This document shows, in pieces, positions 15,898-60,467 of a stretch of DNA of 64,000 nucleotides (position 1 is its first letter; each line of letters starts with the position of its first letter). The position numbers and the translations under genes were made by a program. This stretch comes from Octopus vulgaris (lineage: Eukaryota), in contig OX597818.1 of the NCBI GenBank assembly GCA_951406725.2, forward strand, positions 51,150,001 to 51,214,000. The letters are read 5' to 3'. The notes below the pieces were generated by a model. It was given only the letters and a program-made list of their open reading frames with translations, had not been told where the DNA came from and did not search any database.

Positions 15898-15926
15898 ATG
15901 TCAGTTTAAAATAATTAACTAATTAC

Positions 15927-16917
15927 CTGTTAAATTGATAACTTTGGAGCACAGCAAAGCACCGAGACGATCAAGAACCAATACACCGTTTCTTCTCAGT
16001 TGGTCTTTTAGACAAGGGTGAACCACTTTCTGGCAGAATAAAATTCTAATGCCTTTTGATATGAGTTCAGAACAGAATGACTCCATATGAGAAAGAAAGC
16101 TTTGCTCAAGTTCTTTAAGACTGGTACTGGCATAAGTCAACTGAGGTAGCTCTATAGAATCTCCTGCCATGGATACGTTTACTACAACTGTACAAATATT
16201 CTCTAGAGATTCTCTCTGTGTTTGCCATGACAGCACTTCTTTGATGTTTGTAGCCTCAAGCAATAATCCTTCACAACAGAAAGAATTATGTGTTTCTTCA
16301 CCAGGAATGCCAATGATGTGTATATTGTCTAAGATGGGTCTTAAGGAACTGTCCTGTCTTTCAGAAGGAAGGCTTCTAATGAAGGCTTCTAAGAGTACAG
16401 AACTCATCAACTTTAGTAGCTGCTCATCTAGCTGGTACAATGGTTTTGATGACAACATCGTACTGGCCACCTGACACAAAGAATTAACATCAGATATTTC
16501 TACAGCCATTTTACAGGAGAAATCATCTGATTTTAAATAACTAAGAAATAATTCAAGAAGAAAAGAATTTACTTTGGTAATCAACCTATGATCTAAATCA
16601 AGTTTCAAAGCTTTGTCTATCAGAATTAGGATAAAATGAGCCATGAAGAGAGCCCCATCCCCGTAGGTATGTGAATGCTTTGAACAGGCTTCAATTATGA
16701 GTCGTGCTAAAGGATTTGTAGGTCGCAGAGCAGCCAGCAGCCTGGATGATGAACTTGTCAGTGTGACATGACCCCCGCAGTTATTACGCAGTAGCTTAAT
16801 GCCTCCATAAGGGCCAACTGTGGTGGAAAATAAATGCCTAAGGGAATTGAGTTGGTGCACTGTTTCCTTGTCTGTGAGTTTGCCACGTAGGAGTTTAGTT
16901 TCAGTAACTTCCTGCAT
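15927..16917 (-). CDS. MKKS: MKKS/BBS6 coding exon 1 (991 nt); full CDS 991+179+111+471 = 1752 nt, 583 aa
   Basis: ORF with GPYGGIK, GGHVTLTSSSSRLL, GDGALF, SMAGD, CQKVVHPCLK and VLDRLG, all characteristic of MKKS. Acceptor atttcag| at 16934 and donor G|gtaatt at 15926. Confidence 0.95.
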
Positions 16918-16940
16918 TATTCAATTATATACTCTGAAAT

Positions 16941-17275: not shown

Positions 17276-17529
17276 TGTTTGAAGAAACATTTTCTTAAAT
17301 TAAAAGTTATAAACTATATAGAAAAATCTTTAAAGAACAGAGTTTTTTTTTTTTTTCATATAATTGATAATTTTAATTTAAGAAAATCTTTCTATAAATA
17401 TTGTGAGACAGACAATCTCACGAGTAAAATATACTTTGCAATAATTTTAGCTATATCTGCTACTGTTGTCATACTGCTACAGGTCAATTCTGATTGAGTA
17501 GAGCCATGAGCAGAGATATTCATGGATAT

Positions 17530-17810
17530 ACCAGCGCCGCCTGACTAGCGTCCATGTCGGTGACACATAAAAAGCACCAACCGATTGTGGCCATTTGCCA
17601 GCCTCCTCTGGTCCCTGTGCTGGTGGCATGTAAAAAGCACCCACTACACTCATGGAGTGGTTGGCATTAGGAAGGGCATCCAGCTGTAGAAACATTGCCA
17701 GATCAGATTGGAGCCTGGTGCAGCCTCCTGGCTTCCCAGACCCCGGTCGAACCATCCAACCCATGTTAGCATAGAAAACGGACGTTAAACAATGATGATG
17801 ATGATGATGT
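17530..17810 (+). mobile_element. Family C retroelement copy
   Basis: Shared body and (GAT)n tail. Confidence 0.75.
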
Positions 17811-18412
17811 GATCCTTACATTACCTAAAATGTTTTATTTAATACAGTAGATTGTGATTTGAAGAAGATTCCCTGTTGTTTTCTAGTCTGAGTGACTCCA
17901 TAAAGGTTCCTATGTTGGCTTCTCCTAATATGTATATTAGGGGTTGTCTCTGCTGCTACCTATTACCTCTCTGACACACACCTACCTCCTCCATCATACT
18001 TCAACCTTGCATCCTCTGGAATAAAACCACCTCCCTCGATACTAGTCCCCTCTCAGTTGAGGGGTCATGTCTTGCAAGTTACTTAGTAATCATATCTAGT
18101 GCCATTGCCAGTGGTTGGCATTAAGGAGGGTATCCAGCTGCATCGATATTCATTCTGCATTACTATGTGGTCTGTTAGCCAAATCTATTAGAAGAGCTTT
18201 CTATGATAGCCACACAATTCTCTGAATCCATATCTTATGCTACAAGGAGAACTACACAACCATTTCCACATACAATTTTTAAAAGCCAAGAGGAACAAAA
18301 AATAAAATAAACAATTTTCATTTGCTAATTTATAAAGAATAGTTTTTGAAGATCAGTCCCTGAATACGAGATTAAAGCAATTAAAATATTTTTGAAATTT
18401 GTAACTAACCTG

Positions 18413-18577
18413 TTATTTTGGTGATGATTTAGCAATTCTCTCTTCAGAAGTAGCGATTTTTGGAGTTTTCAATGGATATGTTGCTAAGTACATAACAGAT
18501 GTGATGACTATCAAGGAAACAAACTTGTTGCTATGGGCCCAATTAGCAGCCGACTGGAAAACTGTTCTTAGAGACAT
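18413..18577 (-). CDS. MKKS upstream ORF 2, 54-aa single-TM microprotein, uMKKS2-like (exon 18589-18410)
   Basis: ttcaattctag|GATTTGCCAAAC-ATG...TAA-CAG|gttagt; MSLRTVFQSAANWAHSNKFVSLIVITSVMYLATYPLKTPKIATSEERIAKSSPK*. The W-x3-N-x13-L-A-T-Y-x-L pattern matches recalled human uMKKS2. Confidence 0.72.
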   Translation of the reverse strand: MSLRTVFQSAANWAHSNKFVSLIVITSVMYLATYPLKTPKIATSEERIAKSSPK

Positions 18578-18704
18578 GTTTGGCAAATCCTAGAATTGAA
18601 AAAAAATATATATATAAACTTAATATCAGTGGTGTATAAGATTTCTTAATGCAATTTGATAATTGAGAAGAAACTCTCTGAATAGTTTTCAATGAAATCC
18701 AGAT

Positions 18705-18947
18705 TGGGTACGTAAAAAGCACCAACCGATCGTGGCCGTTGCCAGCCTCGCCTGGCACCTGTGCCGGTGGCATGTAAAAAGCACCCACTACACTCACAGA
18801 GTGGTTGACATTAGAAAGGGCATCCAGCCGTAGAAACACTGCCAGATCAGACTGAGCCTGGTGCAGCCTCCTGGCTTCCCAGACCCCAGTCGAACCGTCC
18901 AACCCATGCTAGCATGGAAAACGGACGTTAAACAATGATGATGATGA
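18705..18947 (+). mobile_element. Family C retroelement copy
   Basis: Shared body and (GAT)n tail. Confidence 0.75.
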
Positions 18948-19509
18948 GATGGCTGTATACTCTTTCCCAGTCTCTTCCTGATTTGGCAACCCTCTCTTCA
19001 AAGAGAAATCATTGACTTAAGAGAATTCATAGGCTGAACAATTATGCAATGCAAACAGAATCTTCATCAAAAACACAAATCATGCACATAAACAGCCCAT
19101 CAACTATCACTGCCAATGGCAAACCACTAGACCAGTCATGGGCAACATTTTACAAGAAGCAGGCTACATGAGACAGGGCTCATCATCAGGTGAGACACAC
19201 TATTATAAAATTCAAGGTAATTATTTTGTTGAAGGTGTCATTCAGAAAGATACGTGGCCTGCGGACTGTAGTTTGTCCATGACTGCACAAGATGATATGG
19301 ATAACCTTAGATACCTAGGAATCCTTATCAACTAAGTTAATGGGGTGGAAACAGACATTCATGCCTAACTTGCCAAAGTTCATTATGAATTCACATCAAA
19401 ATTTTAATGTAATACATTACTAGAATGACTCATTTCATAGCTGCTCCAAAGTGAGTGATTAATTATTTTGTGGTTAGAAAGTAGTAAAGTTGAAATAGTA
19501 GAAATAATT

Positions 19510-20080
19510 TGCATCACCAGTCTGGAACCCCTATCTTGCCCAGGATATTGTCTGGAAACTGTTTAGCGACGTGCAACCAAGACAATACTCTCCATCAGGC
19601 ATTTGCCATATTCTGAATGCCTTACTTCCCTGGGTATGGATACACTGAAACTCCGACGTCTGGCAGCTGACTTGGCAGACACCCATAAAATTATTAACCA
19701 TCTTACTAACAATAACTCTGAGCACCTTTTCAAACTCCACCCATCTAACACCCGTGGGCATGATTACAAAGTCAGAAAACAGTACAGCTCCCATGACTTT
19801 CGGAAACATTTTTTCACGCTAAGAGTTGCTGAAGTATGGAACAAACTGCCATCATCAGTTGTTAGTTGTCGGAGCACTGCATCCTTCAAAACTTCCATGC
19901 TTCCAGAGATTCGCCAACACTACACCTGATTTTCTCCCCTCCATACACACACAAGCATGTATCTGACTCATACATTGTTCACTTTGCAGGCATTTGTACA
20001 TTACTGCATATGCTTTATACACACTTTTGACAAGTTGTGGTGCACCTGAGCACCGTATACAATAATTTCATTATTATTAT
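19510..20080 (+). mobile_element. CR1/L2-type LINE 3' end (ORF2 C-terminus, 3' UTR and ATT tail)
   Basis: ORF 19603-19929 has LKLRRLAADL..HKII..TRGHDYK..RKHFFTLRVAEVWNKLPSSVV, typical of the CR1-clade C-terminus; ends in (ATT)n. Confidence 0.85.
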
Positions 20081-20561
20081 AATTTCTTAAAATACCCTTA
20101 AAATGATGTAAGTCTGGTTACGATAGTTTGTGGATTATCCAGTCATAAAAGATAGATGAGGGTCCCACAACAACTTGCTTAGCAACCATCACAGAGACTA
20201 TTTGCTTGTAGTGCTAAAATGTTCATGTTACATATTAGCTCAGTCCCTCCATCAAATCAACATTACCTGTACAGGTGCATAGTGTGCCAAACATCAGATG
20301 TTGAGGTGACTGCAGAGCTATATGAAATAATGTGGCTTACTCAAGAACACAACACACCACCCAGTCCAGAAATTGAAACCAAGATCTCACAATCATGAGT
20401 ACAGCAGCCTAACCACTAGGCCATGTTCCTTAATAATTTAGCCCTCACTTGATATCAGACAGAAAACAAATTAAACAAAAAAAAAATTTTAAGGAATTGG
20501 GGTTTTTTCCCAATAATTATGACAAACATTAACTTACTTTGGGTAATTTGGAGTTTCTTAT

Positions 20562-20741
20562 TTATTCTTTTGGGGTTTTCTTGATTATTTTTCCCAAAAT
20601 CCCAATCTCTTGTCTTTCAGGCTCAACTAAATCAGGATTAAATTGCATATAGTACCAACCAACATGTACGGCAATTACTGAAGGGATCATAACAAGCAGC
20701 ACCGTGTAATTTTTGGCAAAGGCTTTCAATTGCTTCAACAT
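20562..20741 (-). CDS. MKKS upstream ORF 1, 59-aa single-TM microprotein, uMKKS1-like (exon 20747-20538)
   Basis: ttttctttcttttcag|TTAACA-ATG...TAA...CCCAAA|gtaagt; MLKQLKAFAKNYTVLLVMIPSVIAVHVGWYYMQFNPDLVEPERQEIGILGKIIKKTPKE*. The YxVLxxMxPxVxxxHxGWY pattern matches recalled human uMKKS1. Confidence 0.85.
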   Translation of the reverse strand: MLKQLKAFAKNYTVLLVMIPSVIAVHVGWYYMQFNPDLVEPERQEIGILGKIIKKTPKE

Positions 20742-20868
20742 TGTTAACTGAAAAGAAAGAAAACTTTCTAAATTATTTTATTAAACAATTATCAACTAGC
20801 CTTGCTCTTTCTAACCCTTAATCCTAATGTTCCATCAATGTGTTTAGAGAATTTATGTTATTTAATAG

Positions 20869-21171
20869 TGGAAGCACTCCGTCAGTTACGACGATGAGGG
20901 TTCCGGTTGATCTGAATCAACGGAACAGCCTGCTCGTGAAATTAACGTGTAAGTGGCTGAGCACTCCACAGACACATGCAGGTACAACAGAAACAGGAAG
21001 TAAGAGTGAGAGAAAGTTGTGGTGAAAGAGTACAGCAAGGATCACCACCATCCCCTGCCAGAGCCTCGTGGAGCTTTTAGGTGTTTTCGCTCAATAAACA
21101 CTCACAACGCCCGGTCTGGGAATCGAAACCGCGAGTCCGCTGCCCTAACCACTGGGCCATTGCGCCTCCAC
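20869..21171 (-). mobile_element. tRNA-derived SINE family D with 12-bp TSD
   Basis: Head GGAGGCGCAATGGCCCAGTGGTTAGGGCAGCGG..GGTTTCGATTCCC; TSD GTTATTTAATAG on both sides. Confidence 0.8.
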
Positions 21172-21347
21172 GTTATTTAATAGCTACATCTAGAGGAAGA
21201 GGCTTGTCAACAAGGATATCTTAGTCTTCTAAGATTGGTGAGAGTAATACATTTGATGTACTTCTTAACCCTCTGCCTTTACTATATATCATATGATACA
21301 CAGGACATATTTCCTCAGCATCCATACATCACATATGATACACATTA

Positions 21348-21578
21348 CCTATTTCTTTACTACCCACAAGGGGCTAAACACAGAGAGGACAAACAAGGAC
21401 AGACAAACGGATTAAGTCAGTTATATCGACCCAGTGCGTAACTGGTACTTAATTTATCAACTCCGAAAGGATGAAAGGCAAAGTCGACCTCGGCGGAATT
21501 TGAACTCATAGCGTAAAGACAGATGAAATACTGCTGAGCATTTCACCCGGCGTGCTAACGTTTCTGCCAGCTCGCCGT
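21348..21578 (-). mobile_element. SINE family B
   Basis: Full-length reverse-complement copy. Confidence 0.8.
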
Positions 21579-22398
21579 AATATTGGATCACGTCTTCCAA
21601 TGTCCCCTCCATTATAGCAAGACACCTGTTTCTGTCTCTGCCTTTTTATCACACTCTAACCTTTCACCCTCTCACACAAGTTCCCCTCTTCAAATACCCC
21701 TGCTCCTCTCATAATTCCATTCTTGGGAGTTACTTGGTGACCCTGCCAGTGCTGATGCCATGTAAAAGCATCCAGTCCACACTGTTAAAATCATGCTAAA
21801 ACTAACCTCGCTTATGCTAGTGCCATGTAAAAAGCACTGAGTCAACTCTACAGAGTGACTGATGTTAGGAAGGGCATCCAGCCGTAAAAATCATGCCAAA
21901 ATTAATCTCGCCTATTCTAGTGCCACGTACAGAGCACTAAGTCCACTCTACAGAGTGGTTGGTGTTAGGAAGGGCATCCAGTCATAAAAAGCCTGCCAAA
22001 ACAGACACAGTAGCCTAGGGTAGTTTTTTAACTTCACTGGCTCCTGACAACTGTCCCACCCATGCATGCATGGAAGATGGACGTTAAATGATGATGACTG
22101 AAGGATATATGGACTCTACACGTAGTATTGCAAACAAAACCTCACCTATGAAGGCACTAACTCCAGATAAAATATAGAATTCTCCAAAAAGGGTAGAGGA
22201 AAATCTACATCTATGGACTGATGCTGACAATTTGGTATGACTGACTGGACATTTAGCTTGTTTTGGTAACAATACTGGTGTTGGAAGTAAATCCACGAAC
22301 ACACACATGTATGCACGAACAGAAATATACGCATATAAATAGAGTGAGGGAGAGAGACATTACAATTTATTCAAGGAACATAATCAACATAAACAATT

Positions 22399-23189
22399 TT
22401 CCTCTCCTCTTACACATCGAGAAATACCCTCACACACATAGAGAGAAGGGGAAAGAGAGAGAACCATTAAAACGTGAGAAATATAAAAATATAAAAACGT
22501 TTGGTTTCAAATAAGTCGGCGTCGAACCAGCAACGCCAAAACGTCTCATATCCCAGACAATCTCTCTCTGGTGTCAGTGGTGCGATAAAATGTGTCCAGT
22601 CCATGTGGCAAAAAGAATCTTGTTCTTCAAGATCCATCCAACACATGCAAGCAGAGAAAAGACGGATATAAAAACGATGGAGATGATAAATAAACTTAAT
22701 GTCGTTGGGGCTCCCTCCTGTACAAAAGAAGGAAGATTAGCGAGTAACTAACAATGGAAAATACGGCGCCGGTTGACAGTTTTATATTCGAGCTTCGTAA
22801 CAAGAACAAAAGATGGGAAGATTCGTCATAACGAGGAATAAACAAACATATGCACGTTATAAAATACCATACTAAACTTAAAATTCAGTATGGAATCATA
22901 TATATTCCCCAGTCAACAAATTTGAGATTCAATGTAACGCATATATATATATATAATAAATAAATTTACAACCATTTAAATTGTATTACATAAGACTTAA
23001 ACGCTCAGCGGTGTCGACTCAAAGTACATCAAATACATCAAGTTTCACACACAATTTACACACTTTATATACACACACACATATATTATACAGTGTTTTA
23101 ATTTCACTTAAAAGCCGTCACTATAAATAATTACCGAAACACAGGCTATTTCCAAATGTTGCGGTCAGTGTATGAAGGTTACCACAGTA

Positions 23190-23236
<47 letters not shown>

Positions 23237-23368
23237 TACTCATTATCTTTTATTAAACTTTTAATACTTTTGATATATATTTAAAATAATATAAATTAAT
23301 TAATTTTATGTATTGGCTTAAGTTTTTCATTGTTTGATTTGCCTAATAGTGGTTTTATCTCTAATTTA

Positions 23369-23406
<38 letters not shown>

Positions 23407-24009
23407 ATTACCAATAATAATATAGGGTGAAATTAATTAATTTGGAATAATCATCAATTTCACCAAGTAGATTTCGGCATGTAAAAGCCCCATTCAAGGA
23501 GCAAATCGTTGCTAAACCCTTAATTACTTAGTATATATATATATATGTATATATATATATGTATATATATGCCAGTTGAAGTTTCATGGGTTTGATAACT
23601 TTAAAAATGTTCTATTTGCTTCCACACTTCATGTATTTTAACCTCATAAATTCATCAAATCAATTAGGTTTCGCTTCGAAGTCCCTTACAGTCGCAAAGG
23701 TAATTACGTGATCGATCAAACTTTTACTCCGTTCGTTCGTAACACTTCGAGCGAAAAACAAATAGTTTTCAATACATTTCAACATCAACTAAGAGTTTCT
23801 GGAGAAGGCAAGAAACCCATTTACAAAACAAAGCAAATACATGTTAAAACAACACAGAATAAACAATGGAACAACAAGAATTACGAGTCTAAAGTCGAAA
23901 TAAGAGTCGTTTCGAATTACCCTTTCCTCGAAGCTCGTTGCATGGCTGACCTTCCCTCTAAGGGGAGATAACTCTAAGCCCATACTTGAATTTCATTTCT
24001 TCTTGAATC
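22399..24009. promoter_or_regulatory. Putative bidirectional promoter region between the MKKS locus (-) and AGA (+)
   Basis: Head-to-head genes, local CpG enrichment, no SINE insertions, and duplicated with AGA at 50850-52427. TSSs were not located. Confidence 0.45.
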
Positions 24010-24121
24010 ATGTCACAGAAGGTGTGTTTGTTATTGCTCCTAATTTTCGTCGCTAGAGCTGCGGGTTCAAACTTACCTCTAGTCATAAATACGTGGCCTT
24101 TTATTACACCAAATGCGAAAG
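24010..24121 (+). CDS. AGA: Aspartylglucosaminidase (glycosylasparaginase) copy 1, exon 1; full CDS 1050 nt, 349 aa
   Basis: Signal peptide MSQKVCLLLLLIFVARAAGS followed by LPLVINTWPF; donor G|gtaac. Confidence 0.92.
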
Positions 24122-24698
24122 GTAACTTTTATAAATACTTTTACTCTTCTTATTGCAATGTAAAAGTATGTAATAACTTTAATAACCATCGTTTATGTGC
24201 CAAATTAACATTTTTATTGCCATGCATAAACAGTGTGTCCCATGGGAAGAAATAGCGAGAAAACAAAGAAACGATAAACTACAATTCCAACAGAATACAT
24301 CTTAAGTCCATGAATACTTCGAAATTATATTTCTGATCGTATAAACCATTTCGAATATTATTTTAGCAAGTTTTAAATGACAGCTTTTACCGTTTCTGTG
24401 GTGCCCGCCCCTCATTTCTCGTGATATCCGAAGCACTTTTTTGCTTATTTTGCTTATTGATTAATCTAGCGCTGCTTGGACCAGACGGTGCGTTGTGTCC
24501 TTCATCGAGACCCTTTTTTCACATTGCTCCAGTCCTCTCAACTGAAAATGGGTATCAAACCAGACTACAACTGGTGCAACCCTGCACCCTGTCCCTTTCC
24601 AGTTGCCTCATCCTTCTCGTTCCTTTGGATCAAAGGATGGGAGGGTAGGTCGAGATGCTGTCAATATCTGCTCGTCATCATATAGGCTCACTAAAACA

Positions 24699-35400: not shown

Positions 35401-35819
35401 TGAATAACGTATAGTCTAATGACTAATTCGTCTTTTGTGCTAGGTCACTGGTAATAATAATTTATTTTTATTACCCTATTTACTATGTTTCATATTTATA
35501 TATATTCAAGATCTAACTTGATTGTACTTGTCAACATTTATAGCTACCTATTTTGCTTGGATACAGCTACATCATAAATGAATGCACCCTATTAATGACA
35601 AAGAGTATGATCAAACCAACAGATGTGTTGAGCTGGTTGATGAAGGGTTGGAGGAGGTAACTGATTGGGGTGTATGGGTAATGATAGCGATAAGTATCTC
35701 TGATGTCTGTTCAGTGAGAAGTGATGACAGGGGGTAACTGTAATGTCTGTTGGGAGTGGTGCTAGAAGACAACAGAAATGACCCTTTCTCTCAGTTTTTT
35801 TTTTAAATCTGTTTTAAAG

Positions 35820-35976
35820 CTTGGAGTGTGATCAACAGTAAAGGAAGTGCTTTAGATGCTGTTGAGCAAGGATGCTCCATGTGTGAAAGATATCGACAGT
35901 GCAGCAAAAGTATTGGATATGGTGGAAGACCAGATGAAGATGGGGAAACAACTCTCGATGCAATGATAATGGATGG
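35820..35976 (+). CDS. AGA: AGA copy 1, exon 2
   Basis: aag|CT TGG...GAT GG|gtaac; [53 protein letters not shown]. Confidence 0.95.
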
Positions 35977-36017
35977 GTAACATGCTTTATATTTCAACTA
36001 ATATTCCTTTCTATGTA

Positions 36018-38310: not shown

Positions 38311-38423
38311 AATCACTCATTCTGCTGGAGCAGTTGGTGGCCTGAGAAGAGTGAAGGCAGCAATATCGGTGGCCCGTGCAGTGATGGAATATACTGACCA
38401 TACACTGCTCGTTGGAGAGGGAG
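38311..38423 (+). CDS. AGA: AGA copy 1, exon 3
   Basis: gtag|A ATC...GGA G|gtaaag; [37 protein letters not shown]; 113 nt. Confidence 0.95.
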
Positions 38424-38489
38424 GTAAAGTTATTCAATAATAGAATCAGTGTTGTTCTTTGTTTATCAGATATTTTATACATTATTTAC

Positions 38490-40704: not shown

Positions 40705-40907
40705 AATGTTAAACCAGACCCTAAAAAACACTGTGGACCTTACAAACCTGCCAATCATGATGACCCGCTTTACAAATTCCATAAGCCACAAAATTCACCT
40801 GATATCTCCGAAACTAACCACGATACCATTGGTATGATTGGTGTTGATGCCAAAGGTAATGTTGCAGTAGGAACTTCAACAAATGGATTAGCCAACAAAA
40901 TGCATGG
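40705..40907 (+). CDS. AGA: AGA copy 1, exon 5 (autocleavage site HD|T, nucleophile Thr codon 40825-40827)
   Basis: acag|AAT...CAT GG|gtttg; [15 protein letters not shown]...[31 protein letters not shown]. Confidence 0.95.
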
Positions 40908-41196
40908 GTTTGTAATCTTTCTGTAATTTTTTTTTTATTTTGTTTTCTCTGAATATATTCATGTTTGATCCTTTCCTGCTGCTGTTTATCTTTGATTATT
41001 TCTTGGCTGTTTTTAGACATTGGTTCAGTTAGTGTTATCATTTTTAATGCAGTGAGTATTAAAACTTGAACTCTTCATCATCGTCATCATCATTTAAAAT
41101 CCACTTTCCATGTTGGCATGGATTGGACAATTCAATAGGAACTGGCAAACCACTAGGCTGCATCAAACTCCAATATCTACTTTGGTATTGTTTCTG

Positions 41197-43378: not shown

Positions 43379-43486
43379 GAGAGTTGGTGATTCACCTATT
43401 GTTGGTGCTGGTGCTTATGTGGACAACGCAGTCGGTGGTGCTGTAGCTACAGGTAATGGAGACGTTATGATGAGATTTTTACCAAG
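43379..43486 (+). CDS. AGA: AGA copy 1, exon 6
   Basis: gcag|G AGA...CCA AG|gtcagt; [35 protein letters not shown], with substrate-binding R, D and TG intact. Confidence 0.96.
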
Positions 43487-57748: not shown

Positions 57749-58447
57749 ACGTAAAAAGCACTATTCGAGCATGATCGTTACCAGAGTCGCCTTACTGGCA
57801 CATGAAAAACTTTCGAGTGAGGTTGTTGCCAGTGCTGCTGGACTGGCTCCTGTGCAGGTGGCATGTAAAAAACACCATTTGAGCGTGGCCATTGCCAGTA
57901 CCACCTGACTGGCCCTCATGCCAGTGGCACATAAAAGCACCCACTACGCTCTCAGAGTGGTTGGCATTAGGAAGAGCATCCAGCTGTAGAAACTCTGCCA
58001 GATCAAGATTGCAGCCTGGTGAAGCCACCTGGTGAAGCCACCTGGTGAAGCCAGTTCTCAGTCAAATCTTCCAACCCATGGAAAGTGGACATTAAACGAT
58101 GTTGATGATGATATATTGATTCAAGATCTAACTTGATTGTACTAATCAACATTTATAGCTACCTATTTTGCTCTTTATGCCACCTCAGGAAGTGCTTGGT
58201 TACAGCTACATCATAAATGGATGCACCCTATTAATGACAAAGAATATGACCAAACCATGAAGGGCTGATGAAGGGTTGGAGGAGGTAACAGATTGGGATG
58301 TATGGGTAGTGATAGTGGTAAGTATCTCTGATGTCTATTCAGTGAGAAGTGATGACAGGGGAGTAACTGTAATGTCTGTTGGGAGTGGTACTAGAAGATA
58401 ACAGCAATGACCCTTTCTCTCAGTTTTTTTTTTAATCTGTTTTAAAG

Positions 58448-58607
58448 CTTGGAGTGTGATCAACAATAAAGGAAGATCTGCTTTAGATGCTGTTGAGCAA
58501 GGATGCTCCATGTGTGACGTGTATCGACAATGCGGATCAAGTGTTGGATATGGTGGATCACCTGATGAAAATGGAGAAACAACTCTCGATGCAATGATAA
58601 TGGATGG
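58448..58607 (+). CDS. AGA: AGA copy 2, exon 2
   Basis: [54 protein letters not shown]; 160 nt, frame preserved. Confidence 0.95.
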
Positions 58608-59439
58608 GTAACATGCTTTATATTTCAACTAATATTCCTTTCTATGTATCATCATCATCATCATCATTATCGTTTAATATCTGATTTCCATGCTAGCATG
58701 GGTTGGACAGTTCAACTGGGGTCTGGGAAGCCAGGAGGCTGCACCAGGCTCCAGTCTGATCTGGCAGTGTTTTTACAGCTGGATGCCCTTCCTAACGCCA
58801 ACCATTCCATGAGTGTAGTGGGTGCTTTTTATGTGCCACCAGCACAGGGGCCAGAGGAGGCTGGCAATGGCCACGATCAGTTGGTGCTTTTTACATGCCA
58901 CCGGCATGGAAGCCAGTCAAGGCGGCGCTGGCATCAGCCATGTTCAGATGGTGCTTTTTATGTGCCACCAACACGGGTATCACCACAACAATTTCCATTG
59001 ATTTTCATTTTGATGTTGATGTATCAGAGTTGATAATATCATTTGTTACATGCATAAACAAACTGGAACTTAAATATTCGTCCCATACATAAGATTTCGT
59101 ATTGATCGTCATATGGGTGATAATTACAGATTGTCACATGTCACACCATGCAATTCATCTCAATATGTCACAGTCTGAACATGTACCTCGGAGGGGAACT
59201 TTATTGGTGCAATTCCATAGTCATTCACGACCGAAAGGGGTCTTTTACCTTATCCAGAGATGCATTATCCAATGTATCTGTGCCATTTTCAATATGACAA
59301 TTAAGGTGTGATTTGAGGGAGATTTGACTGCTATTTGAAACAGATCGGACAACTTTACAGAGTCTTCAGTATCAGTTGGTAGTCAATGGAAGTGGAATTT
59401 TGAAATATAAATTTATAAAATTCCAGACCTTGCTTCCAC

Positions 59440-60192: not shown

Positions 60193-60305
60193 AATCACTC
60201 ATTCTGTTGGAGCAGTTGGTGGCCTGAAAAGGGTCAAGTCAGCAATATCTGTGGCCCGTGCAGTGATGAAATATACTGAGCATACACTGCTTGTTGGAGA
60301 TGCAG
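60193..60305 (+). CDS. AGA: AGA copy 2, exon 3
   Basis: [37 protein letters not shown]; AG/GT intact, 113 nt. Confidence 0.95.
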
Positions 60306-60467
60306 GTAAAATTACTAAATTAAGAATCAATGTTGTTCTTTGTTCATCAGATATTTTATATTAATAATATTCCAATGTTACGGAGATGTACTTGCATAGC
60401 AAGTGACCTGATCTGAGATCATCTACTGGGACGAAAACAATTTCAGCATGGAAGGTGTTTATAAGCC

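Follow-up and report, generated by a model that had tools for sequence, protein, structure and literature searches.

Locus and transcript structure

The question raised by the locus described here is whether a 59-residue peptide encoded upstream of an octopus chaperonin gene acts in its own right or serves only as a brake on ribosomes. The window analyzed is a stretch of 64,000 nt from the Octopus vulgaris assembly GCA_951406725.2 (contig OX597818.1, positions 51,150,001–51,214,000), and all positions below are counted from its first letter. In agreement with the initial annotation, a 59-aa ORF (ORF1) is present at 20562..20741 on the minus strand; it extends from the ATG at 20741 to the TAA at 20562 within a single exon. 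The octopus genome contains one clear copy of ORF1, the next match having an E-value of 3.05. The closest database match, and the only close one, is the Octopus vulgaris gene model P0002 from this same locus, which shares identity with ORF1 over residues 1–27 and then splices out before GWY; the 59-aa form is absent from the annotation.

Contigs were obtained from four of 24 listed runs, originating from four studies; none of the listed runs is recorded as RNA and the four were taken as such by guess, but the joints in their contigs are GT-AG splices. In all four runs, the joint 20537/18588 crosses a GT-AG intron and connects the ORF1 exon to the ORF2 exon. Together with the splice-site letters, this joint places the ORF1 exon, with its AG acceptor and GT donor, at 20537..20747 on the minus strand (boundary ±1 base). 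The second cistron, ORF2 (54 aa; 18413..18577, minus strand), has its own exon at 18588–18410, is present in a single copy, and is the positional counterpart of uMKKS2. It is followed on the same strand by the first coding exon (15925..16933, ATG at 16917) of a chaperonin gene. This exon matches the Cpn60/TCP-1 chaperonin family (PF00118, E = 4.2e-24), and judged from the family and the gene layout the gene presumably is MKKS/BBS6-like.

All three exons are spanned by the X12 contig (1,433 nt, depth 38.8), which is an assembled sequence and not a single long read or molecule. Its letters 1211–1422 correspond to the ORF1 exon, 1032–1210 to the ORF2 exon, and 23–1013 to 16915–15925, the remaining 18 letters leading to the chaperonin exon acceptor at 16933, where an AG is present. 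In the spliced sequence, 36 nt separate the ORF1 stop from the ORF2 ATG and 19 nt separate the ORF2 stop from the MKKS ATG; all three ATGs have an A at −3. ORF1 would be the first cistron of a spliced ORF1–ORF2–MKKS RNA.

Part of a further upstream exon is likely located at 23921..23948 on the minus strand and would be joined to ORF1 by a putative junction, as suggested by the X3 and X9 contigs, which extend 28 letters further, by fitting depth in two end bins, and by a donor that is the same as in P0002. It contributes to an 8-codon micro-ORF with a stop 2 nt before the ORF1 ATG. An ATG at 23983 on the minus strand is in frame with ORF1 through the same putative splice (23983–23921), as in P0002; an RNA starting as far up as 23983 would extend ORF1 by 23 residues, and most homologues start near Met1 of the 59-aa form. 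The X8 contig carries 660 letters 5′ of the ORF1 exon that have no match within 17350–24150, possibly an alternative first exon or the leader of another species.

Aligned over 48 aa, ORF2 and the C-terminal half of the Nucella model P0034 are 42% identical (pairwise E = 4e-13); a word search of the database yielded no ORF2 homologue and its recognition in the ESM Atlas was below the mark. Its likeness to human uMKKS2 was assessed by eye only, from the sequence printed in PMC12313729. P0034 combines homologues of ORF1 and ORF2 in one model, and the two small ORFs thus are neighbours in a second class of molluscs; since the locus is mis-annotated in both octopus and Nucella, invertebrate proteomes miss the peptide. 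In the spliced octopus sequence (20562–18577, minus strand) ORF1 and ORF2 are likewise in frame, with 12 sense codons between them and no further stop. Readthrough of the ORF1 TAA would give a 126-aa fusion, and P0034 is annotated as a fusion of 125 aa. The fusion is probably a combination of chance and a gene-prediction artefact, because P0030 and P0035, both close relatives, end after 56–58 aa. The possibility that ORF1 and ORF2 are paralogues was rejected, as the scores of the octopus and Nucella ORF2 against the ORF1 profile were equalled by 122 and 48 of 500 shuffles, respectively.

Homology to human uMKKS1

A search of 1.84 billion representatives with ORF1 produced 20 matches at E ≤ 0.001, comprising 16 small homologues, this locus, and three unrelated repeat proteins. 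At the level of the single sequence, a fish homologue was matched at E = 4.5e-4, and no named mammalian one was among the matches listed. Profile A1, built with 17 sequences from the invertebrate and fish matches, identified 35 proteins among 339 candidates, including the mole protein named “LOC128706665 homolog” (E = 8.6e-8) and named proteins from fish, the annelid Lamellibrachia, and the gastropod Nucella; a flea protein also is among the ORF1 homologues. The top ESM Atlas cluster scored 0.95 and is mostly arthropod, followed by two chordate clusters at 0.93, one of which again is named “LOC128706665 homolog”. LOC128706665 is described as an alternative protein of MKKS (10.1101/2024.10.01.615885), and human uMKKS1, LOC128706665, and micro-MKKS63 all denote UniProt Q9HB66 (PMC11837024, PMC13577902). 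Judged from its sequence, octopus ORF1 is the counterpart of human uMKKS1: the name “uMKKS1-like” given in the initial annotation was well chosen, both because the named mammalian orthologue is matched and because the gene layout is the same.

The octopus and human peptides have a homologous helix with V-L, P, and H-x-G-W, and are of similar length (59 vs. 63 aa). In both cases the coding sequence is the first long ORF in the MKKS leader, and another small ORF comes next. The octopus peptide and the mole orthologue are about 30% identical. The octopus peptide differs from the human one in having an invertebrate-type Q-F-N segment after the helix, and the octopus layout differs in that each small ORF occupies a separate exon. 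While the published descriptions of uMKKS1 present it as conserved in mammals, the range observed here also includes molluscs, annelids, and insects, and in some cases the peptide precedes a J-domain gene. For five related genomic loci, pN/pS is 0.30 over 47 codons (range 0.12–0.66, the pairs not being independent), which supports purifying selection on the peptide in these relatives. Taken as a whole, we consider it highly probable that ORF1 encodes a translated mitochondrial microprotein orthologous to uMKKS1.

Predicted fold and conserved core

The AlphaFold2 model of ORF1 (mean pLDDT 80) contains helices at residues 2–11 and 13–33, the second at pLDDT 86–95. The best 19-residue hydropathy window (1.77) covers residues 14–32, and the predicted transmembrane helix is accordingly placed at these residues (20646..20702, minus strand). 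The transmembrane segment containing Pro and His, as described initially, is in line with this prediction, except that His26 falls into the C-terminal third of the helix, away from mid-membrane. The basic amphipathic N-terminus of the same description is basic (net charge +3) and predicted to be helical (residues 2–11), although its hydrophobic moment does not clearly exceed that of shuffles (p = 0.074), and the charged tail is indeed charged (five K/R and five D/E) though neutral overall. Among the homologues, the mean net charge is +2.2 before the helix vs. +0.2 after it, being higher before the helix in 37 of 51 sequences.

No Pfam match was found for ORF1 (E ≤ 10) or for ORF2. Foldseek gave no match to the ORF1 model, a wide structural search retrieved generic single helices only (best Z 3.7), and a PDB sequence search with profile A1 gave a single match that was judged to be due to chance. 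Prediction of an ORF1–ORF2 complex, with alignments unused, scored 0.02 and was taken neither as support for binding nor as an argument against it.

The motif Y-x-V-L-x2-M-x-P-x5-H-x-G-W-Y, initially proposed as the conserved core of the family, is present in ORF1, with a single occurrence in a six-frame reading of the window; the human uMKKS1 sequence, with which ORF1 was initially compared, likewise fits by eye as given in PMC12313729 (Table 1). As a family core, however, the motif fails: none of 42 homologues and none of 43 distinct cores match it in full. A motif that fits octopus and human but none of the 43 cores is an artefact of comparing two sequences. The counts refer to 43 distinct 24-residue cores from 51 sequences selected by likeness to the octopus peptide, and hence distant members could break even the counts for H26 and W29. 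Left out were P0002 (this locus), the long repeat proteins P0010, P0014, and P0020, the cluster members P0022–P0025 and P0052–P0057, and the loci L012–L016.

Only two positions are invariant among these cores, namely, H26 and W29 (43/43 each). They also are the sole invariant columns in two MAFFT alignments (A1 and A2) built without that anchor; the codons of the H26-x-x-W29 segment occupy 20655..20666 on the minus strand. They are followed by V14 (40/43), V17 (39), Y30 (38), P20 and Q33 (36 each), and G28 (32), and at a lower level by N35 (31), L15 (29), Y12 (17), and M18 (15). At position 12, Tyr and Asn alternate, and at position 18 Met is exchanged for Cys, Thr, or Ser. P20 is present in 36 of 37 non-fish cores vs. 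none of six fish cores. In fish orthologues (P0018, P0041–P0047, P0049–P0051), a lineage-specific change of the helix is observed: following an M-G step, Ser or Gly takes the place of the helix Pro, and Lys that of the Gln located past the helix. As fishes lack both this Pro and this Gln, the interface is not fixed in detail. Checked by alignment and profile across invertebrate orthologues, what holds of the proposed motif is H-x-x-W, plus Pro outside fishes, and the core would be better written as V-h-h-V-x-h-P-x5-H-x-x-W-Y-x-h-Q-x-N. The comparison from mollusc to mammal thereby narrows the candidate functional residues to His26 and Trp29, which by eye correspond roughly to His25 and Trp28 of the human peptide. 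Tyr12, Met18, and Pro20 do not qualify as universal residues.

In a helical-wheel projection, an arc of 100 degrees accommodates H26, W29, Y30, and Q33, together with L15, I19, and V22, while P20 and G28 are off this face. Given that H26, W29, Y30, and Q33 share one face of the predicted helix, a specific binding interface, as initially suggested, is a reasonable inference from the model, and selection on this face for binding something would be the simplest reading. The constraint lies in the helix and a short segment after it; the tail varies in both sequence and length and is the least conserved part. The distance from the His to the stop ranges from 31 to 52 residues (P0035, P0001, P0016, P0006), and the fixed short distance of conserved residues from the stop, a trait of stalling uORFs, is absent in the ORF1 family.

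Gene context in other animals

One scan of metagenome contigs returned 14 loci. Five of them (L012–L016), having short matches and frames closed by a stop just upstream, were dropped as chance. Six of the 14 are genomic and come from closely related animals, which probably are insects, since the ORF1 reading enters an intron at the same place as in the flea-type protein P0017. In five of these six loci the same strand carries an MKKS-like coding sequence 3.1–3.7 kb further downstream; the sixth contig ends before that point. The ORF1 peptides of L009 and L010 are identical, and these two loci may represent one species.

Three other loci (L003, L004, and L005) are intronless, transcript-like contigs with a homologue of 63–66 aa carrying P-x5-H-x-x-W-Y. 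On each of them, the adjacent ORF encodes a J-domain protein (the pairs occupy L003:60–1059, L004:69–1054, and L005:18–1021), with 28, 14, and 56 nt, respectively, between the peptide stop and the J-protein ATG. The J-proteins have 248–259 aa, with a DnaJ domain at E = 1e-20 or better, a basic, acid-free, presequence-like N-terminus, and, close to the C-terminus, a hydrophobic segment; presumably, they are DNAJC4/DnaJ-60-like. As they are only 38–51% identical to each other, the pairing goes far back in that lineage and does not stem from one chimeric contig. No MKKS was found between or within the L003–L005 contigs, and a two-sequence ORF2 profile, a weak test, detected no ORF2 homologue in 770 frames of L003–L011. 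A tree of 37 cores, largely unresolved, assigned neither taxon nor orthology to the J-linked peptides, which could be paralogues. The three best J-domain matches in octopus have no uMKKS1-like ORF within about 1.5 kb, introns weakening this test.

The pairing of uMKKS1 with MKKS spans protostomes and deuterostomes and appears to have been swapped in one lineage. The same peptide preceding a J-domain gene in the absence of MKKS has outlived the MKKS link, which supports a function in trans; through this swap, as in a natural experiment, the role of the peptide itself can be told apart from the brake on MKKS. The peptide itself and its own function in human were already known; the J-domain partner is new. 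Our literature search found no paper on invertebrate uMKKS1 orthologues, on the invariant residues, or on a J-protein partner, although some supplements may bear on the range and the partner. PMC4568590, 10.64898/2026.03.05.709866, PMC13701646, and PMC2276209 added nothing further.

Proposed function and alternative explanations

In human, HA-tagged MKKS uORFs are mitochondrial (PMC7066179), and the peptide has been detected by mass spectrometry (PMC8448870, 10.1101/2025.07.27.667088). Micro-MKKS63 is reported as an abundant and the dominant product of its locus, with some transcripts encoding the peptide alone; oxygen consumption was reduced in two knockout lines, and a link of the peptide to mitochondrial respiration and to Alzheimer's disease has been published (PMC13577902). 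A deep-learning interactome, i.e., one computational prediction, links LOC128706665 to a component or assembly factor of complex IV (10.1101/2024.10.01.615885). The initial suggestion that the peptide is functional in its own right agrees with the purifying selection in relatives, with its occurrence before a different gene, and with the human knockout and localization data (PMC13577902).

The octopus peptide presumably behaves as the human one with respect to translation, mitochondrial location, a role in respiration, and repression of the downstream ORF. Its product likely is a single-pass mitochondrial membrane protein, with the basic N-terminus on the matrix side and H26, W29, Y30, and Q33 near the surface facing the intermembrane space. 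Through the His26/Trp29 face it likely would bind an assembly factor or a subunit of the respiratory chain, complex IV being the most likely one. We lean, with modest confidence, towards this full model of a mitochondrial membrane microprotein with a respiratory-chain partner at the inner membrane. Being first in the RNA, ORF1 would take most ribosomes, leaving MKKS to leaky scanning or reinitiation as a side role.

A more far-reaching version is advanced tentatively, and on balance we doubt it: the peptide may be an old pan-bilaterian mitochondrial gene, a complex IV assembly factor that was not an MKKS uORF in origin, with the H-x-x-W face as its working site. Its highly translated mRNA would host low-abundance chaperone passengers that are swappable while the peptide stays. 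Vertebrates, molluscs, and insects would carry MKKS in this position, and another animal lineage a mitochondrial J-protein anchored in the membrane.

Alternatively, the same microprotein might reside in the outer mitochondrial membrane and have a function in import, lipid handling, or organelle contacts, in which case the respiration defect would be indirect. BioID of the human peptide points to the outer membrane (PMC13577902), a review leaves the choice between inner and outer membrane unsettled (PMC11837024), and the moderate hydropathy (mean 1.6) suits either. This placement nevertheless seems unlikely to us given the published prediction of a complex IV partner (10.1101/2024.10.01.615885) and the weak ESM Atlas look-alikes (0.82–0.84, leads only), which mostly are small inner-membrane proteins such as UQCC5, MITRAC7, and an ATP synthase subunit; moreover, inner-membrane proteins may be labelled in transit.

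It is rather improbable that the peptide has been conserved mainly as a sequence-dependent ribosome brake on the downstream chaperone gene, be it MKKS or the swapped-in J-protein. Braking as such is documented in human: a frameshift of a conserved MKKS uORF relieved reporter repression (PMC7530721), and reporter output rose when the uORF start codons were removed (Akimoto 2013, as summarized in PMC11837024). In addition, both downstream partners, the MKKS-like protein and the J-protein, are chaperones. However, conservation is concentrated in the membrane helix and not beside the stop, as reflected in the variable His-to-stop distance, and the human peptide-only transcripts, the abundance of the peptide, and the knockout phenotype (PMC13577902) speak for the product itself. 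If the peptide were only a brake on MKKS, neither retention of the helix face before another gene nor the greatest variation near the stop codon would be expected. The two roles are compatible, the human uORF staying a brake (PMC7530721) while its product may act in trans.

The invariant His could also be a heme or metal ligand, the peptide, alone or as an oligomer, handing the cofactor to a respiratory complex during assembly. Complex IV, the predicted partner class, requires heme a and copper, and His26, one of two invariant residues, is costly inside a membrane helix; still, no second ligand is conserved, Met18 often being Cys or Thr, and we assign this possibility a low probability. Finally, a chance ORF or annotation artefact, for which the public model P0002 with its spliced-out GWY segment might speak, has a negligible probability given that spliced contigs in four of four runs keep the whole ORF, that it has 42 homologues in several phyla, and that pN/pS is 0.30 in the five related loci.

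Comparison with other microproteins

For the preferred model of a respiratory-chain partner at the inner membrane, several small single-pass proteins tied to respiratory-complex assembly offer parallels, namely, Sloth1/Sloth2, which are SMIM4 (UQCC5) and BRAWNIN (UQCC6), and SMIM20/MITRAC7; in the case of sloth1/2, two peptides are encoded by one transcript. ORF1 may work similarly, but it does not belong to the UQCC5, UQCC6, or MITRAC7 families: it has no Pfam match and reaches only 0.82–0.84 in the ESM Atlas, and Pfam models of known assembly factors (UPF0640/UQCC5, MITRAC7, and others) matched none of 17 family members at E ≤ 1.

A functionally unrelated gene is likewise preceded by a uORF for a mitochondrial membrane microprotein in the case of STREMI (the SLC35A4 uORF), one of the human bicistronic pairs described as “gene symbiosis” (PMC13303939), in which an independent microprotein gene shares its mRNA with an unrelated one; the main text of that study does not mention MKKS. 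STREMI shares the dual action in trans and in translational control, with no sequence likeness to uMKKS1 found. The STREMI pairing dates to jawed vertebrates (PMC13303939), whereas that of uMKKS1 and MKKS spans protostomes and deuterostomes.

Human uMKKS2 (PMC12313729, Table 1) likewise contains a hydrophobic stretch, with H-L-G-x-Y at its end, and by eye is similar to the invertebrate uMKKS1 core, which hints at an old duplication.

From 24010 onward, the plus strand of the window contains an Asparaginase_2 gene, presumably aspartylglucosaminidase-like, that is arranged head to head with the ORF1–MKKS gene, its probable ATG lying about 60–90 nt from the upstream exon of the latter. Its exons were recognized at 35774–35983, 38318–38449, 40777–40911, and 43380–43484, and again at 58444–58614 and 60200–60307, so that the gene appears to be tandemly duplicated.
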